Below, piece by piece: positions 1 through 24,970 of a DNA stretch of 24,970 bases (within the stretch, counting starts at the first letter, position 1; the number at the start of each line of letters is the position of its first letter). The position numbers and the translations under genes were made by a program. Under the pieces are notes generated by a model. It did no database searches. It was not told the origin of the DNA and saw nothing but the letters and a program-made list of their open reading frames with translations. Origin of the DNA: Sulfurimonadaceae bacterium (GTDB lineage: Bacteria > Campylobacterota > Campylobacteria > Campylobacterales > Sulfurimonadaceae); contig JBFEXS010000021.1 in NCBI GenBank assembly GCA_041562555.1, positions 1-24,970 of the forward strand, read 5' to 3'.

Positions 1-16
1 GCAAATAGGTCTTCTT

Positions 17-454
17 ATGATGGGTTATCAGGAGTGGTTTGAATTCCACTCGAACAAACACCAGAAAGTGCTAAAAAAGCTTCTTGACAGAAATATGGAC
101 CAAGAAGAGATCATTCGCTATTTCCGCTTTGAGAACATGGTGCAGCACGAACAGGACTTTTGTGAACTCTACAAAAGTAATACCAAGTGTCATGATATGC
201 CGGATCTTAACTGCTATCTCTGTTCCTGTCCCAATTTTCGCTTCCATACCGACCCAGAGACTATTGACGGGAAGACGCTCCACTCTACCTGTTCCATCGA
301 TTCAAAGGACGGTGCGATCTTTGAGCATGAAGGTCATCAACATCAAGACTGTTCAGGCTGTTTGGTACCCCATCATGAAAGCTATATAGAAAAACACTTC
401 TCCATCGATTGGAAGGATATCATGAGCGCATGTCCTATTCAATCCTCCTCCTGA
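17..454 (+). CDS. Cysteine-rich small domain (zf-like) protein
   Basis: Motifs C..CH..NCYLCSCP and DCSGCLVPH match the Cys-rich small domain family often found with cobamide genes. The frame is open to the window edge, so the start (17, 20 or further upstream) is uncertain. Confidence 0.7.
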   Translation: MMGYQEWFEFHSNKHQKVLKKLLDRNMDQEEIIRYFRFENMVQHEQDFCELYKSNTKCHDMPDLNCYLCSCPNFRFHTDPETIDGKTLHSTCSIDSKDGAIFEHEGHQHQDCSGCLVPHHESYIEKHFSIDWKDIMSACPIQSSS

Positions 455-455
455 G

Positions 456-484
456 TTGACATTCATCATTTCTTGGTGTAGACT
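456..484 (+). promoter_or_regulatory. Sigma70 promoter for the uORF-btuB transcript
   Basis: TTGACA (456-461), 17-nt spacer, TAGACT (479-484). Confidence 0.7.
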
Positions 485-511
485 TCCGAAATTATTTCAC
501 AGGATAGACGG

Positions 512-886
512 ATGAGAAGACCTAAGGGCTTTGGAAAAAACTATTTTTCTTTATCAGCGATTTGTGCCTACTCCAGTAATATGAATCTTCAAGCACAATG
601 CAACGCCTTTATCCAGGTCTCACGTAATCTCTCCTTTGAGACATTAGAAGAAGAGGAAAAGCCTCTTGAAGAGCTCGAGGCGCTCTTGCAGGAAAGTGCT
701 GTTCAGCCACAATCATCCTCCTGTCATTGTAACTGTTTTTTTAAAAACCGTCTCTACACACTCTGCCAGGTATTCAAATATTTTCCACAAACCTTTTTTA
801 TCTTCTTTAAGACTCATTCAGGGATATCTCCACCCACATCTTTTCTCACTTCGATCAAACAAAACAATATTTTAGGAAAAACATGA
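512..886 (+). CDS. Putative leader/regulatory uORF (124 aa) upstream of btuB
   Basis: AGGA Shine-Dalgarno at 501-504, 7 nt before ATG 512 and just downstream of the promoter. Its stop overlaps the btuB start (ATGA, 883-886). Contains CHCNC and HSGISPP. Confidence 0.6.
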   Translation: MRRPKGFGKNYFSLSAICAYSSNMNLQAQCNAFIQVSRNLSFETLEEEEKPLEELEALLQESAVQPQSSSCHCNCFFKNRLYTLCQVFKYFPQTFFIFFKTHSGISPPTSFLTSIKQNNILGKT

Positions 887-2760
887 AAACAACAATCACA
901 TTATCACTACTAAGTGCTCTGATATCGAATAACCTCTACGCACAAACAATAGAACTTGAAGAGGTAAGTGTGCAAGCCGCCAGCAGAACCCATCAAGATC
1001 TTAAAGATATTACAGAATCCGTAACGATCATCACATCCGATGATCTTCAAGAAGCCCATGTTCAAACACTTGCTGAAGCGATGAATCGCCCTGGAAATAT
1101 TGCCATGGTTAGCAATGGAGGGATGGGACAGAACAGTTCCTTTCTTCTACGCGGTATGGATTCACAACGTGTCCTAGTCCTTATTGACGGCATCCGTTAC
1201 AACGATATTACAGGTGGAGCACAATATTCCCATCTACAGCTGCGTGACGTAGCACAAATCGAAATCATCAAAGGCGCACAATCTGGTGTATGGGGTTCTG
1301 ATGCCTCTGCCGGTGTTGTCAATATCATTACAAAGAACGCAAAACAAGGGACACATATCTCTGGCAATATAGAAGCAGGTTCTTTTAATACCCAACAAGG
1401 CAGTCTCCAATTTTCCCACAAAACAGATTCCTTTGATATATCAACAGGAATCTCCCGTATTAAGACAGACGGTTTCTCTGCTACCGAACCGACACACAGC
1501 TCCCCTGATTATGGAAAACGAGGAGATGAACTTGACTACGAAGATGATGCGTATACAAATACTACCTATGATATCAAACTAGGCTACAACATTAGTGACG
1601 AAGATCGTATCGAAGCGTATATGAAGCGCATTGATGCCTATGTCGAGTATGACGCAGGAGGTGGAGTTGATGCAAAGAACTATGATGATCCCTATGGATT
1701 TGGCATCTCAACCTATTTTGACAAGATTGACAACCGTTATTATTCCGCAGCCTACAAACATACAGATGAGCTGAATGAGTTAAGCCTTCAATATAACTAT
1801 TCTTATCTTCACAGAAAGGTTCAAGAATTCAAAGGGAATGTGCAAGAAATCTTGCTCCAAGACCGTATCAACTACATGGATGACTCCTTTTTACGCGTCG
1901 GGGGAAGCTATCAAGACTTTGAACATGAGAATGCAGGTAATCCAATTGAGAAAAGCTATGATGCAACATCAGTCTTTGCAACAAACTACAATCAATTCAT
2001 TTTCCTGAGAGAGCTTGGCAAAACGATCATCACCGAGTCTTTACGCTTTGACTCTTACAGTGCCTTCGATGATGAGACAACAGGAAAAGTAGGTCTTAAA
2101 CAATTCCTGTATGAGGATATCTACTTAAGCGCCAACTACGGTACGGGGTATAATGCCCCTACGCTCTATCAACTCTATGCACCGGCCAGTTTCAGCAATC
2201 CCCTTCTAGCACCGGAAACAAGTAAAACCTTTGACATATCCCTTGGAAATGAAAAGCTTACAGCGACATACTTTCATAATAAGGTCGACAATCTTATCGA
2301 ATATGTTGTAACTGATTTTATAACCTATGCTGGGAATTTTGAGAACATCAGCGGTGAATCTACTCTCAAAGGGGTCGAATTGGGATATAAGGATGACTTC
2401 TTTGACATGTTCTCCCTTAATCTTAATTACACCTATCTCAGCGCAAAAAATGCCAACAAGGAATTCCTACGCTCACGTCCTAAACACCAGGTCGATGGAA
2501 ACCTCTTCTATTATATCAATGATGACATAAACATTGGGCTCAATGGCCAGTACATCGGTGAGCGTTATGATCGGGATGGGAGACAAGGTGCACAAACAGG
2601 AAAATATGCAGTCTATAATGCCGTTGCAAATTATACGATCAATAAAAACTTTACAATCTACGCAAAGATAGACAATATCGGTGACAAGTATTATCAGATT
2701 CGTGATGGCTATGCAACAGCAGAGCGCTCGTACTATGCCGGGCTTAATGCTTCATTTTAA
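883..2760 (+). CDS. btuB: TonB-dependent vitamin B12/cobamide receptor
   Basis: Signal peptide, TonB-box-like EEVSVQAASR, plug motifs (LRGMDSQRVLVLIDG; IEIIKGAQSGVWGSDASAGVVNIITK), C-terminal F, and position at the head of the cob/btu cluster. Confidence 0.85.
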   Translation: MKTTITLSLLSALISNNLYAQTIELEEVSVQAASRTHQDLKDITESVTIITSDDLQEAHVQTLAEAMNRPGNIAMVSNGGMGQNSSFLLRGMDSQRVLVLIDGIRYNDITGGAQYSHLQLRDVAQIEIIKGAQSGVWGSDASAGVVNIITKNAKQGTHISGNIEAGSFNTQQGSLQFSHKTDSFDISTGISRIKTDGFSATEPTHSSPDYGKRGDELDYEDDAYTNTTYDIKLGYNISDEDRIEAYMKRIDAYVEYDAGGGVDAKNYDDPYGFGISTYFDKIDNRYYSAAYKHTDELNELSLQYNYSYLHRKVQEFKGNVQEILLQDRINYMDDSFLRVGGSYQDFEHENAGNPIEKSYDATSVFATNYNQFIFLRELGKTIITESLRFDSYSAFDDETTGKVGLKQFLYEDIYLSANYGTGYNAPTLYQLYAPASFSNPLLAPETSKTFDISLGNEKLTATYFHNKVDNLIEYVVTDFITYAGNFENISGESTLKGVELGYKDDFFDMFSLNLNYTYLSAKNANKEFLRSRPKHQVDGNLFYYINDDINIGLNGQYIGERYDRDGRQGAQTGKYAVYNAVANYTINKNFTIYAKIDNIGDKYYQIRDGYATAERSYYAGLNASF

Positions 2761-2768
2761 GCACCTTC

Positions 2769-2777
2769 TGATATAGT
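2769..2777 (+). promoter_or_regulatory. Possible internal extended -10 promoter (TGaTATAGT) for cobT
   Basis: TG at 2769-2770 and TATAGT at 2772-2777, 5 nt before the cobT ATG. No Shine-Dalgarno in the 22-nt gap. Confidence 0.4.
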
Positions 2778-2782
2778 CTATC

Positions 2783-3823
2783 ATGCAAAAGATTTCACTT
2801 AACAGCTCACCTTTTCAAGCGCAACAAGCCGACTTTTTACTAGCGGCTTGCGTTACCCATACCTGTGAGACACCTCGGCTGACACAGGCAGGTATCCCCG
2901 GTAAGATCCCCCTAACGCCAACATTGGATGCGGAGTTCATATCAACGGGAAAAGTCTTCTCGTTGGGGGAGATCGCAGAAACACCAAAAGGGGTTCCTAC
3001 ACCTGCTCTGCTCACTAGAGCTGTGCACGAGCTTGCTCCCTTTAGTGATCTTTCTATCCTGAATCTCGGTCTGCAAAACAAGCCTCAAGAATGCAAGGTA
3101 CTTGATTTTGACATCGCACCGACCCCAAGTATCACGGCAGCCAAAGGCTTTGATGCCGAGGGTCTCTTTGAGAAGGGGTTCGAGTTTGGCAAGAAGTATC
3201 AACTTCAAGGAGACTATCTCATACTGGGTGAAAGCACCCCATCAGGGACAACGACCGCGCAAGCCAGTATCACCGCCTTAGGCTATGAAACAGAGGGACT
3301 CTTCGCTTCTTCTTTTAAAGACGCCCCCTCAAGCATCAAAGAAAAGACCATCTCCAGAGCACTCGCAAAACTGCATACGAATATGTCCATCTATGAAAAA
3401 CTTGGCCACACGTCTGATAATATGCTCATGTTTACAGCCGGCTTCATCCTCTCTGCATCCAGACGTTTCAATATCGTCCTTGCAGGGGGGACCCAGATGG
3501 CAGCGGCTCTGTTAATTTCAAACACCATTGCCGGTCTGCGAGGCATCCATCATGACCATCGACGTATCCACCTCTGTACGACCAAATGGATCGCTGAGGA
3601 CAAGGATTCCAATATTCAGGCCCTAATCGATCAGCTGGATTTTCGTCTGAAGGCCTATTATGCTGACTTTAGTTTTGAGCAGAGCCATCACCCTGCCCTT
3701 AAACTTTATGATGAGGGAGAGGCTAAAGAGGGTGTCGGTGCCGGCGCGTGTATCTCTTATGCTTATGCCCATGGTATCTCTGCCAAAGCCCTTACTTCCA
3801 AGGTCGAGTCTTACCTTGGCTAA
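2783..3823 (+). CDS. cobT: Nicotinate-nucleotide:lower-ligand phosphoribosyltransferase, archaeal/cyanobacterial type
   Basis: TPTLDAEF, GVPTPALLTRA, GESTPSGTTTA, LAGGTQM and YDEGEAKEGVGAG motifs, plus cob operon context. Confidence 0.85.
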   Translation: MQKISLNSSPFQAQQADFLLAACVTHTCETPRLTQAGIPGKIPLTPTLDAEFISTGKVFSLGEIAETPKGVPTPALLTRAVHELAPFSDLSILNLGLQNKPQECKVLDFDIAPTPSITAAKGFDAEGLFEKGFEFGKKYQLQGDYLILGESTPSGTTTAQASITALGYETEGLFASSFKDAPSSIKEKTISRALAKLHTNMSIYEKLGHTSDNMLMFTAGFILSASRRFNIVLAGGTQMAAALLISNTIAGLRGIHHDHRRIHLCTTKWIAEDKDSNIQALIDQLDFRLKAYYADFSFEQSHHPALKLYDEGEAKEGVGAGACISYAYAHGISAKALTSKVESYLG

Positions 3824-5204
3824 ACATCTTAGTATCTTTGGGACCTCCTCGGATGCAGGCAAATCCACCTTGAGTTTTGCCCTCACCTATCTTCTGCACC
3901 ATGCAGGCTTCAAGACGGCCCCCTTTAAGGCGCAGAACGTATCCAATAATTCTGCTGTCTGTGATAAGGGTGGAGAGATAGCTATCCCCCAATTTTTTGC
4001 GGCAGAGGCTATAGGCCTGCAGACCTCAGCTCAGATGAATCCTGTTTTACTCAAATCAGGTAAGGAGAATAAAGCCTCACTCATTCTTAGGGGCTATGCT
4101 ACTTCTGAACAGGATGTCAGGGACTATTATGCCAATCTGGACACCCTTAAACCCATCGTTAAAGAAGCTTTCGAAGACTTGGCACGAGAGTATGAGCTTA
4201 TCGTGGCTGAGGGAGCCGGTTCGCCTGTGGAGCTTAACCTTATGGACAAGGATCTCTCCAACATCTATATCGCTACCGAGTTTAACACCAAGATCATCCT
4301 AGTGGCTGATATTGAAAAAGGCGGGGTGTTCGCCTCAATCTATGGCGTCTATAATCTTTTACCTGAAGACCTCAAAAAGAACGTCATCGGTGTGATCATC
4401 AATAAATTTCGAGGTGATACATCCCTCTTTGATGAAGGCAGACGTATCATTGAAGAGACCTTTGGACTGAAAGTGCTTGGCCTTGTCCCCTACAGAGCCT
4501 TGAACCTTGGCTTTGAAGATATACAGTCCCTTCTAAATTATCAACAGAACAAACCCAATGCCCATATCAATGCTGCCGTGATCAGGCTCCCCCATCTCTC
4601 CAACTTCACCGACTTTGAAGCCCTTATCAATGATCCTGAAGTCCTCGTCAGTTTTATAGAGACCCTCAACCATCTTGATCAATTCGATCTTCTCATCATC
4701 CCAGGGTCCAAACGTACAATCACAGACCTCAAGTGGCTCAAGGAACAAGGAGTTGAGACAGCTCTAAAACAGTATAAAGGGATAATACTGGGTATCTGCG
4801 GAGGGTATGAAATGATGTTTGAAACACTCTATGATGAAAAAGGGGTTGAAGAGGAGCCCATGACACAAGAGACTGGGCTTGGTCTTATCAAAGAAACACT
4901 ACATTTTGAAGCAGAAAAGACCCTTGCCAAGGGAGAATATACCCTTTTTGGCATGAACATAGAAGGTTACGAGATCCATTATGCAAAGGCCGACCAGTTC
5001 TCCTTTCAAAATGAAAATGTGTATGGGACCTTTCTGCACGGGCTTTTGGAGAATGATAATTTCAGAGACCGACTCTTTTCCAGGATCTCCTCCGAGTATA
5101 CAGGGTATAATTTCAAATCATTTAAAGCGAATAAAATCAAAGCGTATTGTTCCTTTATCAATACACATATAGACCTTGAGACTATCATAGGAGAGATACG
5201 ATGA
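3816..5204 (+). CDS. cobQ: Cobyric acid synthase (CobQ/CbiP)
   Basis: GTSSDAGKS, PFKAQNVSNNS, EGAGSPVELNL, GICGGYEM and GTFLHG motifs. Start placed at TTG 3816, overlapping the cobT stop, rather than at 3660. Confidence 0.92.
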   Translation: MAKHLSIFGTSSDAGKSTLSFALTYLLHHAGFKTAPFKAQNVSNNSAVCDKGGEIAIPQFFAAEAIGLQTSAQMNPVLLKSGKENKASLILRGYATSEQDVRDYYANLDTLKPIVKEAFEDLAREYELIVAEGAGSPVELNLMDKDLSNIYIATEFNTKIILVADIEKGGVFASIYGVYNLLPEDLKKNVIGVIINKFRGDTSLFDEGRRIIEETFGLKVLGLVPYRALNLGFEDIQSLLNYQQNKPNAHINAAVIRLPHLSNFTDFEALINDPEVLVSFIETLNHLDQFDLLIIPGSKRTITDLKWLKEQGVETALKQYKGIILGICGGYEMMFETLYDEKGVEEEPMTQETGLGLIKETLHFEAEKTLAKGEYTLFGMNIEGYEIHYAKADQFSFQNENVYGTFLHGLLENDNFRDRLFSRISSEYTGYNFKSFKANKIKAYCSFINTHIDLETIIGEIR

Positions 5205-5704
5205 AAGCCCTTTTCATAGGCGGTGTCAAAAGCGGAAAGTCCTTTCATGCCGAGCAGTTTTGCCTGCAGCACTCCAAGCTCCCTCCTGTCTATCTAGCCA
5301 CGACCGAGTTCGTCGATGAGGAGATGAAAGAGCGCATTAAAACCCATCAACTCCAACGCAGCGAACGTTTCTTGACTGTAGAGGAGTCTTTAAATATCTA
5401 TGAGGCGATCACACCGATGAAGAGCACTGTCTTGGTCGAATGTGTCTCTATGTGGATCAACAATATGCTTTATCATGGATTCGAGTATGAAGCGATACAC
5501 GAGCATATACAAAAACTCCTGGCCCTTCCCCATGATATCGTCTTTGTACAGAATGACGTGGGATCGGGTGTGATTGCCGACAATGCCCTTGCCCGGGAAT
5601 ACGTCGACATCTCAGGGCGGATCTCCCAGCTCATAGCCTCCCGGTCGGACAAAGTCTTTCATGTCATTGCCGGTATTTCTACACAGATTAAGGGCAAACA
5701 ATGA
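5201..5704 (+). CDS. cobU: Bifunctional adenosylcobinamide kinase / cobinamide-phosphate guanylyltransferase
   Basis: GGVKSGKS P-loop, YLAT, DEEMKERIKTHQLQR and NDVGSG motifs. ATGA overlap with cobQ. Confidence 0.9.
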   Translation: MKALFIGGVKSGKSFHAEQFCLQHSKLPPVYLATTEFVDEEMKERIKTHQLQRSERFLTVEESLNIYEAITPMKSTVLVECVSMWINNMLYHGFEYEAIHEHIQKLLALPHDIVFVQNDVGSGVIADNALAREYVDISGRISQLIASRSDKVFHVIAGISTQIKGKQ

Positions 5705-6429
5705 TCAAAAAAACAGCGATGGGCTTTGCTTTAGCAGTGTCGATGTTAAGCACACTTCCCTTTTTTAGAGTGCACGACTTCTTTAAGGGGATAAACGGTT
5801 TTGCCGTAATGTTCTATCCCCTTGTCGGTTTTATCCTTGGAACTATCCTTTATGGCCTCTCTCACCTGCTTGAGCCTTATATCCCACCGGTCCATCTGCA
5901 TATCTTACTCTTTGCATCGTGGGTTGTCCTCACGGGCGCTCTGCATCTGGATGGACTCTCCGATACGATTGATGCCCTCTTCGTTAGAAAAGAGAGAGCA
6001 TTGGAGGTGATGAAAGACCCCCATGTTGGTGCTATGGGGATGACATACACCGCTGTCTTTTTGATCGTGAAAGCGTCCGTTCTTGTTGTGACTGATGCCC
6101 TTTGGGCACTTCCTATTATTCTGATGTTGGCCCGTTTTAACGCCGTCTTAGCCATCTACTTTTTTCCCTATATCCGAGAGAATGGGATGAGTACCCTAGC
6201 CAAACAAGAGTTCAATATCACTCAGCTGCTTTGCTCCATACTCATTGTCTCCCTTGTCTCTATTAGCATGCCTAAGGGAGTTCTACTCCTGCTTATTTCT
6301 TTAGTCTCGCTCCTGTTTTTCAAACTCTGGTTCAATAGACGCTTTGGAGGGTTTTCAGGAGATCTGTACGGCTTTATGATCGAAGGTACGGAAATCCTAT
6401 TACTGCATGGGGTCCTTCTGCTATGCTGA
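5701..6429 (+). CDS. cobS: Adenosylcobinamide-GDP ribazoletransferase (cobalamin synthase)
   Basis: TGALHLDGLSDTIDA, MKDPHVGAMG and GGFSGDLYG motifs in a polytopic membrane protein. Confidence 0.92.
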   Translation: MIKKTAMGFALAVSMLSTLPFFRVHDFFKGINGFAVMFYPLVGFILGTILYGLSHLLEPYIPPVHLHILLFASWVVLTGALHLDGLSDTIDALFVRKERALEVMKDPHVGAMGMTYTAVFLIVKASVLVVTDALWALPIILMLARFNAVLAIYFFPYIRENGMSTLAKQEFNITQLLCSILIVSLVSISMPKGVLLLLISLVSLLFFKLWFNRRFGGFSGDLYGFMIEGTEILLLHGVLLLC

Positions 6430-6998
6430 TCACCCTTGTACGCCATGCCGAAGTCGATGAGGCTTATCATCATAAATATAACGGGCATATAGATATATCT
6501 CTCTCCAAAAAAGGCAGAAAACAGGCTCAGGAACTTGCCCAAAGACTTCAGGGTAAACACTATGATGCTATATTCTGCTCGGATCTTAAACGCTGCAAGC
6601 AGACGCTGCAAGCCTTTGATTTAGACCTAAAGCCCACATACACCTCCATGCTCAGGGAAAAATCATGGGGATGCCATGAGGGCAAGAGCTTTGATGAGAT
6701 TATTGCAATGGAGAGCTTCACCTATGAGGATTTTGAACAATGGATCAATGCCCTTGATGGAGAAGCATATGGAGAATATATCCAGCGCATAGAAGACTTC
6801 TTTACCCGCTTTCTTCCCGAGGCGGCACCCTATGAGCATATCCTGGTAATGACCCATGCCGGAGTGATTCGCGTACTCATGCATCTATTTGAGAAGATCT
6901 CCTTGGAAGAGGCCTTTGGCCGTCGCTTCGCCTATGCAGACCACATTATCCTAGATACACAGACCTGGTCGTTTCAGCGCGAGAGAGAGGCTGTCTAA
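6423..6998 (+). CDS. cobC: Histidine phosphatase, alpha-ribazole/adenosylcobalamin-5'-phosphate phosphatase
   Basis: LVRHAE, SDLKRCKQT, LREKSWG and THAGVIR motifs, plus operon context. Confidence 0.8.
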   Translation: MLITLVRHAEVDEAYHHKYNGHIDISLSKKGRKQAQELAQRLQGKHYDAIFCSDLKRCKQTLQAFDLDLKPTYTSMLREKSWGCHEGKSFDEIIAMESFTYEDFEQWINALDGEAYGEYIQRIEDFFTRFLPEAAPYEHILVMTHAGVIRVLMHLFEKISLEEAFGRRFAYADHIILDTQTWSFQREREAV

Positions 6999-7807
6999 TG
7001 CGTTTGATTCTGCTTTGTATTCTTCTTGGTTCCAACCTCCTTGCCAAAGAGCGTATTGTCACCCTTGCTCCTTCTATCAGTGAGGTGGTATTTGCTCTGG
7101 GAAAGGGTGAGGAACTCGTAGGTGTAAGTGAATTTTCCTTCTATCCTGAAGAGGTTCAAGGTATCACCAAGATCGGAGGATATTCCAATCCTTCACTGGA
7201 GAAGATTTTTTCCCTTAACCCCACTATTGTTATCGGTCAGCATCATTATGAAAAGACCCTGGATCAATTACATCAACTGGGTATCAAGACCTTAAGCCTT
7301 GAGATGAGTACCATCGATAATATCAAACATTCGATCACACAGATCGCCGCTGTCCTTAAGGCGGATCCAGGCCCCCTTCTTACTCCTATCAATAATGCTA
7401 TTGCCAAAGTGAAAGACTCAAAGACCCAAGATAAACGTGTGCTTATTGTCTATGGTCTCTCTATGGATATCAACCGGGGCTTATACATCGCAGGACATGA
7501 TATCTTTTATGAGGATATCATCCATCTGTGCGGAGCGAAGAATGCCTATGACAAAACGGAACTGAGCCAACCTGTCTTGCATTACGAGGGAGTGATAGAG
7601 ACAAACCCGGATATGGTTATCTTGCTTCATCACAGTGCTACTGACGGGGAAGTGGATTTTCAGAAAGCAAAAGAACTCTGGTACAATATCCCTATTGCAG
7701 CAGCTAAAAACAAAGAGGTCTACATCCTGAGTAAAGATTATCTCTCCATCCCTTCACATCGTGTGGCCCAATCCATCCTGGATATCTGTGAGGTTATTCA
7801 ACAATGA
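6998..7807 (+). CDS. btuF: Cobamide ABC transporter periplasmic binding protein
   Basis: Signal peptide and ERIVTLAPSISEVVFALG...VGVS motif of helical-backbone binding proteins. Confidence 0.8.
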   Translation: MRLILLCILLGSNLLAKERIVTLAPSISEVVFALGKGEELVGVSEFSFYPEEVQGITKIGGYSNPSLEKIFSLNPTIVIGQHHYEKTLDQLHQLGIKTLSLEMSTIDNIKHSITQIAAVLKADPGPLLTPINNAIAKVKDSKTQDKRVLIVYGLSMDINRGLYIAGHDIFYEDIIHLCGAKNAYDKTELSQPVLHYEGVIETNPDMVILLHHSATDGEVDFQKAKELWYNIPIAAAKNKEVYILSKDYLSIPSHRVAQSILDICEVIQQ

Positions 7808-8538
7808 TTGTCTCTGAACTCACACTTGCCTATGAAAACACCCCCATCTTAGAAAACATCTCCTTTGAATTCAGGGAACATCTGCTTGTCCTGGGTGCGA
7901 ACGGTTCGGGTAAAAGTACCTTGGCCAAGGCCTTATGTGGGCTTCTTCCCTATGCGGGATCGATCAAACTTTCAGATCACGAGCTCTCTTCTATCCCCCC
8001 GCGTCAACGGGCCAAAGGCATTGCATATATACCGGCTAAGATGCACAGTTTTGAAAGTTTTACCACCGTCGAAGAGTTTGTCCTCTTGGGGCGCTATCCC
8101 TATAAAGACTCCTTTAAAGACTATACTCAGGAAGATAAACAGATCGCCAAAGAAGCCCTGGAAGAGATGGGTCTTGCCTCTCTTTGCTCTCACAGGCTCC
8201 ATGAACTCAGCTCAGGTCAGCAGCAGTTAACCCTCATTGCCCAGGCCCTTGCGCAAAAAAGCACTATCTTGATCTTTGATGAGCCCACCTCCAACCTGGA
8301 TCCTAAAAACACGGCCCTTTTTGTACAGGAACTCAAAAAACTTCGACAACGGCATAAGACCATACTGATCTCCCATGATATACAACTCGCAGCCCACCTG
8401 AATGATCCTGTACTCTTTTTAAACAAGCAAAAAGCAACCTACCATGAGAAAGGGTTTTTCGACAAGGAGCAACTCAGTCTTGCCTATGGAGTTTCCTTTG
8501 TCAATGACAAAGGTGTTATCGGAGTCTCTTATGAATAG
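7804..8538 (+). CDS. btuD: Cobamide ABC transporter ATP-binding protein
   Basis: Walker A GANGSGKS, LSSGQQQ signature, Walker B IFDEPT and H-loop SHD. Confidence 0.8.
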   Translation: MIVSELTLAYENTPILENISFEFREHLLVLGANGSGKSTLAKALCGLLPYAGSIKLSDHELSSIPPRQRAKGIAYIPAKMHSFESFTTVEEFVLLGRYPYKDSFKDYTQEDKQIAKEALEEMGLASLCSHRLHELSSGQQQLTLIAQALAQKSTILIFDEPTSNLDPKNTALFVQELKKLRQRHKTILISHDIQLAAHLNDPVLFLNKQKATYHEKGFFDKEQLSLAYGVSFVNDKGVIGVSYE

Positions 8539-9487
8539 ACTCGTCTGGCTTTTTCTTCTAGGCACGGCACTGCTTTCCCCTTTTATAGGTACAGCCAACC
8601 TTGAACTTGACACACTTCTAGAGAGCGGTTCCCTTTCTCAACGCATCTTTGTTGAGCTTCGCCTTCCGCGAATACTGCTTGCCTTTTTCACGGGCGGGAC
8701 CCTCGCCTTGGCCGGCTTGCTTTTTCAGACCCTCTTTCGCAATGCCTTGATGACCCCCTTTACCCTCGGCGTTTCGGGAGGAGCAGTACTGGGTGCAGGC
8801 CTCGCTATCAAATTGGGATTAGGAGTGATCATCGGTATCTCTGCCGTCTCCTTTTTTGGCTTTATCGGTGCCTTTTCTACCGTTATCATGCTCATTGTAT
8901 TATCACGATACCTCAAGAAGTCCGAGCAGACCTCTTTGCTTCTTTTGGGAATCGCCCTCTCCTTTTTCTATACTTCTGCACTCATGGTCATCTTCTATCT
9001 CAGTTCATTTACCGAAACAGCGACCATTATGCGTTTTACTATGGGTAGCCTCTCTACTGTGGGTTATGTGCATGTGATCACAATAGCACTATTTGCCCTG
9101 TTGTTACTACTGTCACTCTGGCTAAAACGATTTGAGCTACAGCTGCTCTCCATCAGCGATGAACAAGCCGCACTGAAAGGGATCAACACCAAAAGACTGA
9201 CCTACCTCTTCTTGATCATCTCTTCTCTGGCGATCGGGGTACTTGTGAGTCTTACAGGGCCCATTGGCTTTATCGGTCTTATTATTCCCCATATGGTACG
9301 TAAGCTTTATGAAAAACCGGTTGTTTCATTGATCTTTCCAAGCTTTTTTCTAGGCGGCCTGTTTCTGCTCTTTTGTGACACCCTCGCCCGTTTTTTCTCA
9401 TACGGAAGTGAAATCCCTATCGGGGTTGTAACCGCCCTAATCGGTGGACCGTTTTTTATCTATCTGATTATCACTAAAAGTGCTTAA
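8531..9487 (+). CDS. btuC: Cobamide ABC transporter permease (FecCD family)
   Basis: LRLPR, FQTLFRNALMTPFTLGVSGGA, GPIGFIGLIIPH and EIPIGVVTALIGGPFF motifs. Start at ATG 8531 after GGAG. Confidence 0.82.
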   Translation: MNRLVWLFLLGTALLSPFIGTANLELDTLLESGSLSQRIFVELRLPRILLAFFTGGTLALAGLLFQTLFRNALMTPFTLGVSGGAVLGAGLAIKLGLGVIIGISAVSFFGFIGAFSTVIMLIVLSRYLKKSEQTSLLLLGIALSFFYTSALMVIFYLSSFTETATIMRFTMGSLSTVGYVHVITIALFALLLLLSLWLKRFELQLLSISDEQAALKGINTKRLTYLFLIISSLAIGVLVSLTGPIGFIGLIIPHMVRKLYEKPVVSLIFPSFFLGGLFLLFCDTLARFFSYGSEIPIGVVTALIGGPFFIYLIITKSA

Positions 9488-23571: not shown

Positions 23572-24786
23572 TTAGAAATTATATGTCAGGTAAAGTTGGA
23601 ATGTTGTCAACTCTTCATTTGTCGTATCACCAAACATATCATAGATAAGTGCAAGAGAAGTGTCTAAGGCACCAAATGACTTGCTAGCGGTAAACGTGAT
23701 CTCATCGACCTCAGTCTCTCCTCCGGTAGCAGGCTTGATATCTGCACTCCAGTATCCAAGGAACAGATCCACATCGGCAACAGTACTCTCAGCAGACACA
23801 GTCCAAGTATCAGCCCCTGTTACACTCGCCGTTTGAAACCACCACCAGAACTCTGTATAGAGTGATGACGCAGTACCTGCAGCCTGTCCCGTTGTAGCAA
23901 AGTTATATACACCGCCGTATGAACCTTCATCATCAACTGAAGAATACGCTGCTTTTAGCGTTACCGTATCTTCAATAGCATAACCAACCATCAAGGCATA
24001 GGCAGAGTCATCCGGACCTGTTCCTTCCATATCAATACTTGTGTACTGCGCACCTGCTAGCAGACCGTCCATATCAATATCCGCCTGCAGCCAGTAAGCA
24101 TTAGCAGTATTTGGAAGTTCATAGTACCATGCCTGTGCTGTCAGTGGTTTAACAGAGTTGTTAGTCACACCAATAACAGCAGCACCGTCGCTACCGATAG
24201 TCTTGAATGCCCCGCCTTTAGACATGATACTTGCATCAACCGTTGCAGGATCTTCGACACCTACACCATTTGATTTACCTACCCATGCACCGACCAAAGT
24301 CGTATCCGAGATATCTTCATTGATCAGTAGACCGGCTTCAAAAGTATTGTAATCCAAACTCCATGTCTCTGTAAAAACCAGCGGCGTTTCTAAGGTCTGA
24401 CGACCGACTTTTGCCGTCGTATTCCCCAGCTTGCCTTCCAGCCAGGCTTCAGAAAGCCATTCAGTTGTTTCCAAAGCTCCGCTTTGACTTTCATGTGCAT
24501 TTGACCAAGGCCCTTCCGCAATGCTGTCCTGCATACCCAGGGTAGAGATCACTTGAAACTTCGCACCCCCTTTGACATTTTCCATCAGATCTGCCGTTAC
24601 ACCAAGACTAAATCCAAAGTCAGCATAAGATGCTGCCTTGTCAAACATTTCAGGACTTCCTGTCGTTGAATCACCTTGTGTACCGTAAAAAAGTTTTGCG
24701 TCCCCGCTGACTTCAACATTTTCTGCTGCAAACAGATTTGCTCCAAGTAATAATCCTGCTATCAAACTCATTTTAGTAAACTTCAT
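23572..24786 (-). CDS. Outer-membrane porin (Campylobacterota MOMP/OprD-like)
   Basis: MKFTKMSLIA signal peptide; VSGDAKLFY, KVGRQTLETPL and AQAWYY motifs; C-terminal YNF. Shine-Dalgarno AGGAG before ATG 24786. Confidence 0.85.
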   Translation of the reverse strand: MKFTKMSLIAGLLLGANLFAAENVEVSGDAKLFYGTQGDSTTGSPEMFDKAASYADFGFSLGVTADLMENVKGGAKFQVISTLGMQDSIAEGPWSNAHESQSGALETTEWLSEAWLEGKLGNTTAKVGRQTLETPLVFTETWSLDYNTFEAGLLINEDISDTTLVGAWVGKSNGVGVEDPATVDASIMSKGGAFKTIGSDGAAVIGVTNNSVKPLTAQAWYYELPNTANAYWLQADIDMDGLLAGAQYTSIDMEGTGPDDSAYALMVGYAIEDTVTLKAAYSSVDDEGSYGGVYNFATTGQAAGTASSLYTEFWWWFQTASVTGADTWTVSAESTVADVDLFLGYWSADIKPATGGETEVDEITFTASKSFGALDTSLALIYDMFGDTTNEELTTFQLYLTYNF

Positions 24787-24832
24787 TTTTTCTCCTGAGA
24801 AATATATATAAGTTAAACACAACAAAAATTTA

Positions 24833-24930
24833 TTCTCCCGGGTTTTTATCCCTCCGTGTAACCTTATATATAAAAGGTCGATGACTCTCGGACCAGCACA
24901 GATGATTCTGTCGGAACCCTAGTCATCTAT
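24833..24930 (-). ncRNA. ykkC-yxkD riboswitch, guanidine-I (subtype 1) type
   Basis: Minus strand reads GATGACTAGGGTTCCG-ACAGAatcaTCTGT-GCTGGTCCGAG-AGTCATC-GACCTT...AAGGTT-ACACGGAGGGATAAAAACCCGGGAG. All hallmark ykkC blocks and the P1/P1a/P2/P3 pairings are present. Confidence 0.93.
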
Positions 24931-24970
24931 TGAATGTAAAGAAATGTAAATCTCACATCTAATGTCATGC

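Follow-up and report, generated by a model that had tools for sequence, protein, structure and literature searches.

Control of bacterial genes by vitamin B12 is textbook riboswitch biology, and in the comparative-genomics literature the regulon of the cobalamin riboswitch comprises btuB, btuFCD, cob/cbi, cbiM and metE. A different kind of switch is represented by TnaC and SpeFL, short leader peptides that bind their ligand inside the ribosomal exit tunnel, where the metabolite-set arrest controls the access of Rho to the RNA downstream. Two further systems, CruR and CutF, are closer to the case described here. For CruR (Bp2923, DUF2946) of Bordetella pertussis, which is encoded by an upstream open reading frame (uORF), it has been proposed that copper relieves an arrest at a RAPP motif and that Rho then terminates transcription before the receptor gene (PMC9426467), and toeprinting placed the Pro codons of the arrested ribosome in the P and A sites (PMC12992588). 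CutF of Rhodobacter capsulatus and the CutF-like proteins, CopL included, turn on their target with copper by the opening of a stem-loop (PMC9973294). In this study, we analysed a stretch of 24,970 nt (hereafter the window) from a Sulfurimonadaceae bacterium (Campylobacterota; assembly GCA_041562555.1, contig JBFEXS010000021.1, positions 1 to 24,970, forward strand), in which an open reading frame (ORF) at 512..886 (+) fills the leader of a gene for a BtuB-like TonB-dependent receptor. We identified this ORF as the founding member of an unannotated family of Campylobacterota leader peptides. It probably functions as a cis-acting arrest leader that responds to B12 status in the place of a riboswitch, and it may be regarded as an analogue of CruR and CutF, not as a DUF2946 protein.

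The layout of the locus had been described in an earlier reading of the letters (the original prediction), which listed a promoter, a Shine-Dalgarno (SD) sequence, a 124-aa ORF with an ATGA overlap, six Cys with a CHCNC motif, an acidic tract and Pro-Pro codons, and every one of these features was recovered. The sigma-70-type promoter at 456..484 (+) consists of TTGACA (456-461), a 17-nt spacer and TAGACT (479-484) and agrees with the consensus at 10 of 12 positions in a promoter scan; in all 14 aligned loci of the genus TTGAC of the -35 box is invariant and TAnnnT of the -10 box is kept. The SD sequence AGGA at 501..504 (+) lies 7 nt 5' of the ATG at 512, and 63 of 81 loci have an SD-like motif at -18..-4 relative to the leader start, compared with 268 of 1620 random 15-mers. 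The reading frame of 124 aa plus stop ends with TGA at 884-886 and overlaps the receptor start at 883 by 4 nt. Within it, we distinguished an N-terminal module with the motif KGFGKNYF..AI.AYS (residues 1-29, 512..598, +), an acidic tract (residues 43-61, 638..694, +) that is acidic in every aligned member and often contains DPP, the CHCNC motif (residues 71-75, 722..736, +), a putative arrest module KTHSGISPP (809..835, +) with the Pro-Pro codons at 830-835, where the conservation of the family ends, and a non-conserved tail of 16 residues (836..883, +) with a single G in its first 38 nt (836-873). The six Cys are C18, C30, C71, C73, C75 and C85. The receptor gene itself (883..2760, +), preceded by an SD sequence AGGAAAA read at 874..880 (+), starts 47 nt after Pro-Pro and encodes Plug and barrel domains; its best NCBIfam match is TonB-B12 with 260.8 bits, under the curated cut-off of 599.7. 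The rest of the operon (2783..9487, +) contains cobT-like, cobQ-type, cobU and cobS genes and a cobC-type phosphatase gene, followed by btuF-, btuD- and btuC-type genes (Pfam/NCBIfam). ORF 512-886 is the first cistron of this corrinoid uptake and salvage operon, and the window organism is a corrinoid salvager only (cobT/Q/U/S/C and btuFDC).

ORF 512-886 codes for a protein, a conserved leader peptide. A peptide search of 61 related genomes gave 20 loci that read in frame as one conserved protein, and an extension by 79 named loci (best 80 of 277 confirmed, from 421 candidate stretches) brought the set to 82 distinct sequences; nearly all record titles of the extended loci name Campylobacterota taxa. 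The leader profile matches 49 of the 61 related genomes at E<=0.001, with one to two copies per genome, each before a different operon. At invariant or near-invariant residues all synonymous codons are in use (Gly 4, Leu 6, Arg 6, Pro 4, Ala 4), and within the genus the median proportion of synonymous differences (pS) is 0.75, that is, saturated, compared with 0.19 for nonsynonymous differences (pN); in the 41 of 91 pairs that gave a computable dS, omega has a median of about 0.10. It is this use of all synonymous codons at invariant residues, together with a pS far above pN, that identifies the ORF as protein-coding, and conservation at the protein level upstream of btuB with dN/dS below 1, on which the original prediction depended, is thereby confirmed. 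An idea that the B12-dependent enzyme QueG might act through queuosine on the conserved Asn, Tyr and His codons was dropped, as both NAC and NAU codons are used. One locus (L011/L022, G016:C113) has an in-frame stop after codon 30 plus an indel, and represents either a decaying leader or an assembly error (genome 61% complete).

Databases hold the family without a name. We retrieved 171 representatives at E<=0.001 among 1.84 billion, as well as 620 clusters at E<=0.001; among the 120 clusters listed, none carries a Pfam domain and the only name is 'hypothetical protein'. No relative of the leader was found in Pfam, NCBIfam, a PDB sequence profile or the ESM Atlas, and the window leader protein has no Pfam or NCBIfam match at E<=0.01. 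So far as such searches reach, the family is unannotated and seen only in Campylobacterota. A literature search gave no account of this family or of a B12-linked leader peptide, with papers beyond the searched collection being possible.

Across 81 aligned sequences, G6, F7, Y11, F12, C73, P107 and P108 are invariant and M1, K9, A19, H72, N74 and C75 are at least 90% conserved, which bears out the predicted conservation of both the N-terminus and Pro-Pro; the codons of P107 and P108 draw on all four Pro codons (82 sequences). The modules come in the order KGFGKNYF..AI.AYS, acidic tract, (P)CHCNC, about 30 residues and a class-specific run to Pro-Pro. This run reads ..KTRSGISPP or ..LNxxISPP before receptors and [TC]T[YF]FAFRRTGVHPP before metE; in the family the residue preceding Pro-Pro is S, A or H and the one further back I, V or T, and the general end motif is [ST]G[IV]xPP. 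Conservation stops at the second Pro, and the tail thereafter varies from 0 to 36 residues (79 loci), with at most 13 residues in 69 of 79 family members and 16 in the window copy. In 80 of 82 sequences the invariant Cys stands 33-39 residues ahead of Pro-Pro (in the window, the stretch between the Cys motif and Pro-Pro comprises 31 residues), and many members have a further Cys or CxC 10-16 residues before Pro-Pro. Shortened forms were also observed. Those of 57-74 aa before metE (L105-L108, L109-L143) have a CHCNC-like motif and Pro-Pro alone, the N-terminal half being missing, and those of 49-59 aa (the L145-L148, L150, L151 group) have the N-terminal motif and a C-terminal SPP or DPP but no CHCNC, with a constant 41-42 residues from GF/GY to Pro-Pro (five examples, manual count). 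L151 is an 82-aa variant that ends in PP. With the length of the exit tunnel taken for comparison, each leader form keeps a conserved motif about one tunnel length behind Pro-Pro.

A cis-acting arrest leader is favoured because conservation ends exactly at Pro-Pro, because the run before Pro-Pro has tunnel length and the spacing from sensor to Pro-Pro is fixed, and because the sequence after Pro-Pro does not matter and every operon comes with a copy of its own. Purifying selection that is strong across some 107 residues, an N-terminus related to receptor signal peptides and a Cys/His motif would also suit a working small protein, such as an exported or cytoplasmic carrier of corrinoid or metal, that is merely co-transcribed and has no regulatory role in cis. 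We consider such a protein very unlikely, as a separate copy stands before each operon, that of the cytoplasmic enzyme MetE included, conservation ends at Pro-Pro and the tail varies, the frame can enter the receptor, truncated forms keep one motif plus Pro-Pro at fixed spacing, and no fold is predicted: an AlphaFold model based on the 81-row alignment contains helices without a globular fold (pLDDT 68.6, pTM 0.27). It is also decidedly unlikely that the leader is translated and senses nothing, with an unknown transcription factor or small RNA acting at the promoter and Pro-Pro tuning coupling or basal expression. The strongly conserved promoter before the leader fits that proposal, but the 14-locus alignment contains no operator-like conserved element beyond the -35 and -10 boxes, and the invariant motifs, the fixed spacing from motif to Pro-Pro and the parallel spread to unrelated operons would be left unexplained.

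In one species (L002/L031, G006:C5) there is no stop between the leader frame and the receptor frame; open frames of 773, 780 and 731 aa were reported at leader matches (G006:C5, G029:C92, G178:C8), of which only L002/L031 was read. Read-through past Pro-Pro would give an N-terminally extended receptor. A profile search also matched leader residues 1-55/65 to the N-termini of receptor-sized frames of 627-706 aa, and two of three such frames that were read and scanned score best as TonB-B12. Because of this homology with the N-termini of BtuB-like receptors, the leader appears to derive from the 5' end of a btuB-like gene, and the data suggest that it may have arisen by duplication of that end. 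TonB receptors with the N-terminus MK..KGF.G.YFSLAAI.. are encoded at L102:448-2364, L103:207-2186 and L104:153-2159 (-), and in L102 the receptor with the leader-like N-terminus lies directly upstream of a leader-metE pair. The peak hydropathy of the leader N-terminus (1.35-1.49) is between that of the downstream receptors (median 2.35) and that of MetE N-termini (0.52), and a function of the leader N-terminus as signal peptide is doubtful.

Compared with the known systems, the leader shares with CruR the size of the product (about 100-145 aa for the CruR-type uORF), the position at the head of an operon that encodes a TonB-dependent transporter, a Cys motif whose distance from a Pro-Pro arrest motif at the C-terminus (putative in the leader) is conserved, and RNA around the uORF end in which C exceeds G and which is unstructured (PMC9426467). 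That conservation stops at the last Pro fits an arrest with Pro-tRNA in the A site, as seen for CruR by toeprinting (PMC12992588). The two are different in several other respects. PF11162, the DUF2946 model, matches 0 of 18 leader family members at E<=10; the Cys motif is CxCxC (C-H-C-N-C) in the leader and CXXC in CruR; the end motif is [IV][SAH]PP (ISPP in the window), without Arg, and RAPP in CruR; 31-36 residues lie between Cys motif and Pro-Pro, whereas CruR has about 45, conserved within 1-2; the leader regulon contains cobamide genes and metE and that of CruR copper genes; and the leader occurs in Campylobacterota, whereas CruR is mostly from Proteobacteria. The likening to CruR in the original prediction is therefore sound as an analogy but not as kinship.

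CutF-like proteins are described operationally as having fewer than 150 aa, a Cys/His motif, Pro-Pro close to the C-terminal end, an N-terminus that resembles a signal peptide and, a short way downstream, a regulated gene in the same direction (PMC9973294). Set against this description, the leader has most of these properties, the signal peptide being doubtful: CHCNC contains C-x3-C, the window leader has 124 aa and a downstream gene well within 1000 nt (4-nt overlap), and in the family 44-331 nt separate Pro-Pro from the next start. The window leader differs in that 16 further residues follow Pro-Pro, and no conserved stem-loop of the kind opened in CutF was found at the leader end by fold and duplex tests. 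ApdA, ApdP and SecM (RAPP/RGPP- and SecM-type) resemble it in that an arrest-like motif closes with Pro-Pro towards the C-terminus and the regulated gene lies downstream; the leader motif lacks Arg-Ala/Gly, and its downstream genes do not encode Sec/YidC components. A published survey would have missed the leader family, since its search was strictly for RAPP/RGPP (PMC12992588). What appears to be new here is the family, its regulon and its proposed part as a phylum-wide stand-in for a riboswitch; Pro-Pro arrest uORFs that respond to a ligand were already known.

To characterize the genes controlled, we assigned Pfam domains to the first gene after the leader (first 420 residues at most) in 77 non-redundant loci. 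A MetE N-terminal domain follows directly in 47 of the 77 loci, a Plug-domain receptor in 24 and a porin in one, and five have no Pfam match. Among these five, L064 encodes an Opr-type porin (NCBIfam), L062 and L090 begin alike, and one is cut by a contig end; porin-plus-CbiM loci number about 4 in total. The wider context was scanned with 100 of 179 ORFs from 13 of 18 chosen loci. In 7 of 11 receptor loci examined, genes of CobQ, CobU, CobS or CobC-type phosphatase or of the Peripla_BP_2/ABC/FecCD kinds were present downstream, and in both porin loci scanned a CbiM-family gene comes next, with kinase-like and aminotransferase genes upstream of the leader on the opposite strand. The short leaders with the N-terminal motif precede CbiM, with a CobB/CbiA-type amidase further downstream, CbiM-CbiK-corrin methylase operons (cbiM-cbiK-cbiL-type), and receptor plus Peripla_BP_2 (BtuF-type) genes. 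The genes downstream of the leader are the classical B12-riboswitch regulon. A palindromic element of the type GATGATATAGATTATCAT is conserved between the leader end and the porin gene (L041, L062, L064, L090); it resembles a Fur box, and porin genes with such an element may have a second, metal-dependent control.

The same census is relevant to a metal-sensing leader of the CruR/CutF kind, in which a nascent Cys/His cluster would bind Co2+ or Zn2+/Cu+ and the metal would set the arrest. CHCNC and the extra Cys or CxC before Pro-Pro offer three to four thiolate/imidazole ligands, both known analogues sense copper via Cys motifs, some leaders precede cbiM cobalt-uptake genes, and His-rich CutF-like proteins adjoin genes of the HupE/UreJ family, which have been linked to nickel/cobalt homeostasis (PMC9973294). 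Such a sensor is nevertheless unlikely in our opinion, given that cobalt status says little on usable B12 in organisms that only salvage corrinoids, that metE control and the association with MetH follow B12 logic, and that short leaders before receptor and cbi operons have no CHCNC.

No cobalamin riboswitch accompanies these genes. In agreement with the original prediction, which had seen no such consensus in the leader, a covariance-model search with Rfam gave no cobalamin-family match in window positions 430-920 or 1-3000 at E<=10. RF00174 was likewise not found in the window's genome (89% complete), in any of 61 relatives or in any of 151 genomes of a Campylobacterota sample, by a search that detected it in 7 of 14 known reference genomes used as positive control. 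At 12 metE loci no cobalamin or S-adenosylmethionine (SAM) riboswitch was detected by Rfam; thiamine pyrophosphate riboswitches and a tRNA were detected there. The window organism does use riboswitches, because a Guanidine-I riboswitch is present at 24833-24933 (-) (89 bits vs the gathering score of 63), just upstream of a 417-aa ORF at 23572-24825 (-), as the sole window match above gathering score. RF00174 and the leader family share the same 5' leader place and the same controlled genes, but RF00174 is an RNA aptamer whereas the leader is a translated ORF under selection at the protein level. Taken together, a coding uORF, its Pro-Pro end, its ties to cobamide genes and the failure to find RF00174 make a cobamide- or cobalt-linked arrest leader the best reading of the locus.

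The association with methionine synthases extends the B12 connection. Among the 61 relatives, 25 have metE, and in 18 of them the leader is directly upstream (14 full-length, 4 short forms). The MetH activation domain PF02965 is present in 18/18 of the leader-metE genomes and in 0/7 of the metE genomes without leader, a contrast that overstates its own weight, since the genomes are related, and should be read as suggestive rather than as a statistic. Within the genus, MetH is encoded upstream of the leader locus. The window genome (89% complete) encodes MetH, metE was not detected in it, and its single leader copy heads the uptake operon. A counter-example is the genus g32, whose fetched members are titled Campylobacter concisus and in which 38 of 45 genomes have a short-form leader match. 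The short form was located before metE in 3 fetched loci, and 25 of 31 C. concisus loci have a motif of the MetE N-terminus downstream. Strong purifying selection acts on the short form up to Pro-Pro (pS 0.28, pN 0.023), with nucleotide diversity of 0.07 before Pro-Pro and 0.33-0.44 after. In strains otherwise 88-98% identical the residues after Pro-Pro differ, and translation in this species from the first canonical start (TTG) would yield a peptide of about 49 aa.

We propose the following mechanism. A ribosome translating the leader would arrest with Pro-Pro (codons 830-835) in the P and A sites, while the conserved 9-14 residues before Pro-Pro would act inside the exit tunnel. At arrest, the sensor motif 33-42 residues back would be near the tunnel exit, namely CHCNC in the window and the KGFGKNYF N-terminus in short relatives. 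This position differs from that of the ligand in TnaC and SpeFL, and a cobamide is much larger than their ligands. When B12 is low the arrest would persist, the C-rich and G-poor RNA from about codon 71 to the receptor SD would be covered, and transcription and translation would continue into btuB and the cob genes. With the signal present, the arrest would be released, the ribosome would end within a few codons and expression would fall, most likely through Rho as in CruR. The arrest, the action of Rho, B12 as the signal and the direction of control are inferred; for the direction in particular (B12 releases the arrest and the genes go off) we relied on what the regulon does and on the CruR precedent. 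It is possible, and is offered tentatively, that in Campylobacterota the nascent leader senses cobamide directly as it emerges from the ribosome, switching B12 uptake, salvage, biosynthesis and metE, and that it was built from a duplicated btuB-like 5' end. Such a leader would mean that a protein has taken over from one of the most widespread classes of riboswitch.

The RNA around the leader end is consistent with a Rho step. The GC skew of window positions 701-900 is -0.51, and from codon 71 to the next SD C exceeds G in 78 of 80 loci (median skew -0.35), negative values that may partly be a by-product of peptide composition. Rho is present in 36 of 41 relatives. The distance from Pro-Pro to the next start is at least 45 nt (median 51) in 33 non-metE loci, 45-68 nt in 31 of them, and 44-331 nt before metE. 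The original prediction had envisaged another output, in which a ribosome stalled at Pro-Pro would cover TTTTCT (841-846) and so keep it from GGAAAA (875-880) at the btuB SD. Both elements are present in the window, but the stretch from Pro-Pro to the start has a minimum free energy of -0.4 kcal/mol and the duplex (-3.8 kcal/mol vs -4.4 for shuffles, p=0.73) gave no reason to retain this pairing, which was rejected for the window. Across the family the SD pairing probability does not exceed that of shuffles (higher in 23 of 49 loci; medians 0.69 vs 0.68), and duplexes of the Pro-Pro-proximal 21 nt with the SD reach p<=0.05 at 9 of 47 loci before metE and 5 of 33 before other genes, a weak and inconclusive enrichment of anti-SD pairing. 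Of the ligand-sensing arrest leader, for cobamide or cobalt, that was originally suggested, the conserved uORF ending at Pro-Pro and tied to cobamide genes is thus retained, and the anti-SD output is abandoned.

Intrinsic terminators are absent from window positions 300-1000 and were found in 3 of 45 metE spacers. Structure is present in some metE spacers (lowest z-score -8.5), and in 12 long ones whose folds were read by eye it seems to consist of hairpins or repeats that are particular to a lineage and unrelated to each other. The long spacers between leader and metE in L068, L058 and L034 contain lineage-specific tandem or palindromic repeats, seemingly inserted and, in the folds read, mutually unrelated. 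These structured spacers and the position typical of a riboswitch are what could be said for an undescribed RNA switch whose conservation only resembles a reading frame. We find this scarcely credible, considering that synonymous sites are saturated while amino acids are kept, that the 12 folds look unrelated and that the window spacer is unstructured.

Besides the share of peptide composition in the skew and the relatedness behind the MetH contrast, several findings weigh against a B12-responsive arrest leader. The context [IV][SAH]PP is without the Arg of the proven RAPP/RGPP arrest motifs, and the RNA-binding domain of Rho was not found in the window's genome (89% complete). Of the receptor loci examined, 4 of 11 have no cobamide gene downstream, and 6 of 10 receptors scanned have a higher score with siderophore or heme types than with BtuB. 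In g32, MetH was not detected by PF02965 (0 of 61 genomes) or PF02607 (0 of 31). Since a selected leader precedes metE there while MetH was not found, a switch between MetE and MetH cannot be the role of the leader in C. concisus, and the signal sensed may differ between lineages.

This case also speaks for a leader that senses methionine, SAM or homocysteine, so that methionine shortage would raise MetE and the B12 supply for MetH; so does the window organism, which, with MetH and no detectable metE, has its B12 demand tied to methionine synthesis. A SAM-sensing nascent peptide is reportedly found in plant CGS1. However, no other methionine gene (metK, metX or a methionine transporter) occurs among the downstream genes scanned, genes of cbi biosynthesis, cobalt uptake and corrinoid salvage are included, and we know of no SAM regulon that holds such genes. 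The window leader has no internal Met codon either, and methionine sensing seems to us very improbable.

If the B12-responsive arrest leader is confirmed, a whole phylum would control btuB, cob/cbi, cbiM and metE via a translated leader peptide in place of a riboswitch. It would extend ligand-responsive arrest uORFs (CruR, CutF) from copper to a vitamin, provide a non-RAPP Pro-Pro module with two interchangeable sensor motifs at fixed tunnel-length spacing, and account for the regulation of the B12 economy among sulfur oxidisers that are abundant in the sea and in sediments. As B12-linked genes are hard to call in genomes and metagenomes of Campylobacterota, the leader might also be tried there as a marker for them.

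Some neighbouring genes of the window deserve mention. The cobT-like gene (2783-3823) scores 216.6 bits with the archaeal-type CobT model TIGR00303 (cut-off 240) and exceeds the cut-off of an NCBIfam 'hypothetical' equivalog. The CobQ-type ORF is listed at 3660-5204; its true start is probably further downstream, because it overlaps the cobT-like gene by 164 nt and its CbiA domain starts only at residue 58. At window positions 2-454 (+), truncated by the contig start, lies a Cys-rich ORF of about 145 aa, with a counterpart at L023:5083-5517. Ten of the first 20 loci, that of the window included, have this conserved ORF immediately before the leader. It belongs to no Pfam or NCBIfam family save for a weak MNIO_BufB match (E=0.0015), and among its look-alikes in the Atlas are 'cysteine-rich small domain' clusters (PF04071 in 11% of members). 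Relatives carry it after MetH and a thioredoxin-like gene.

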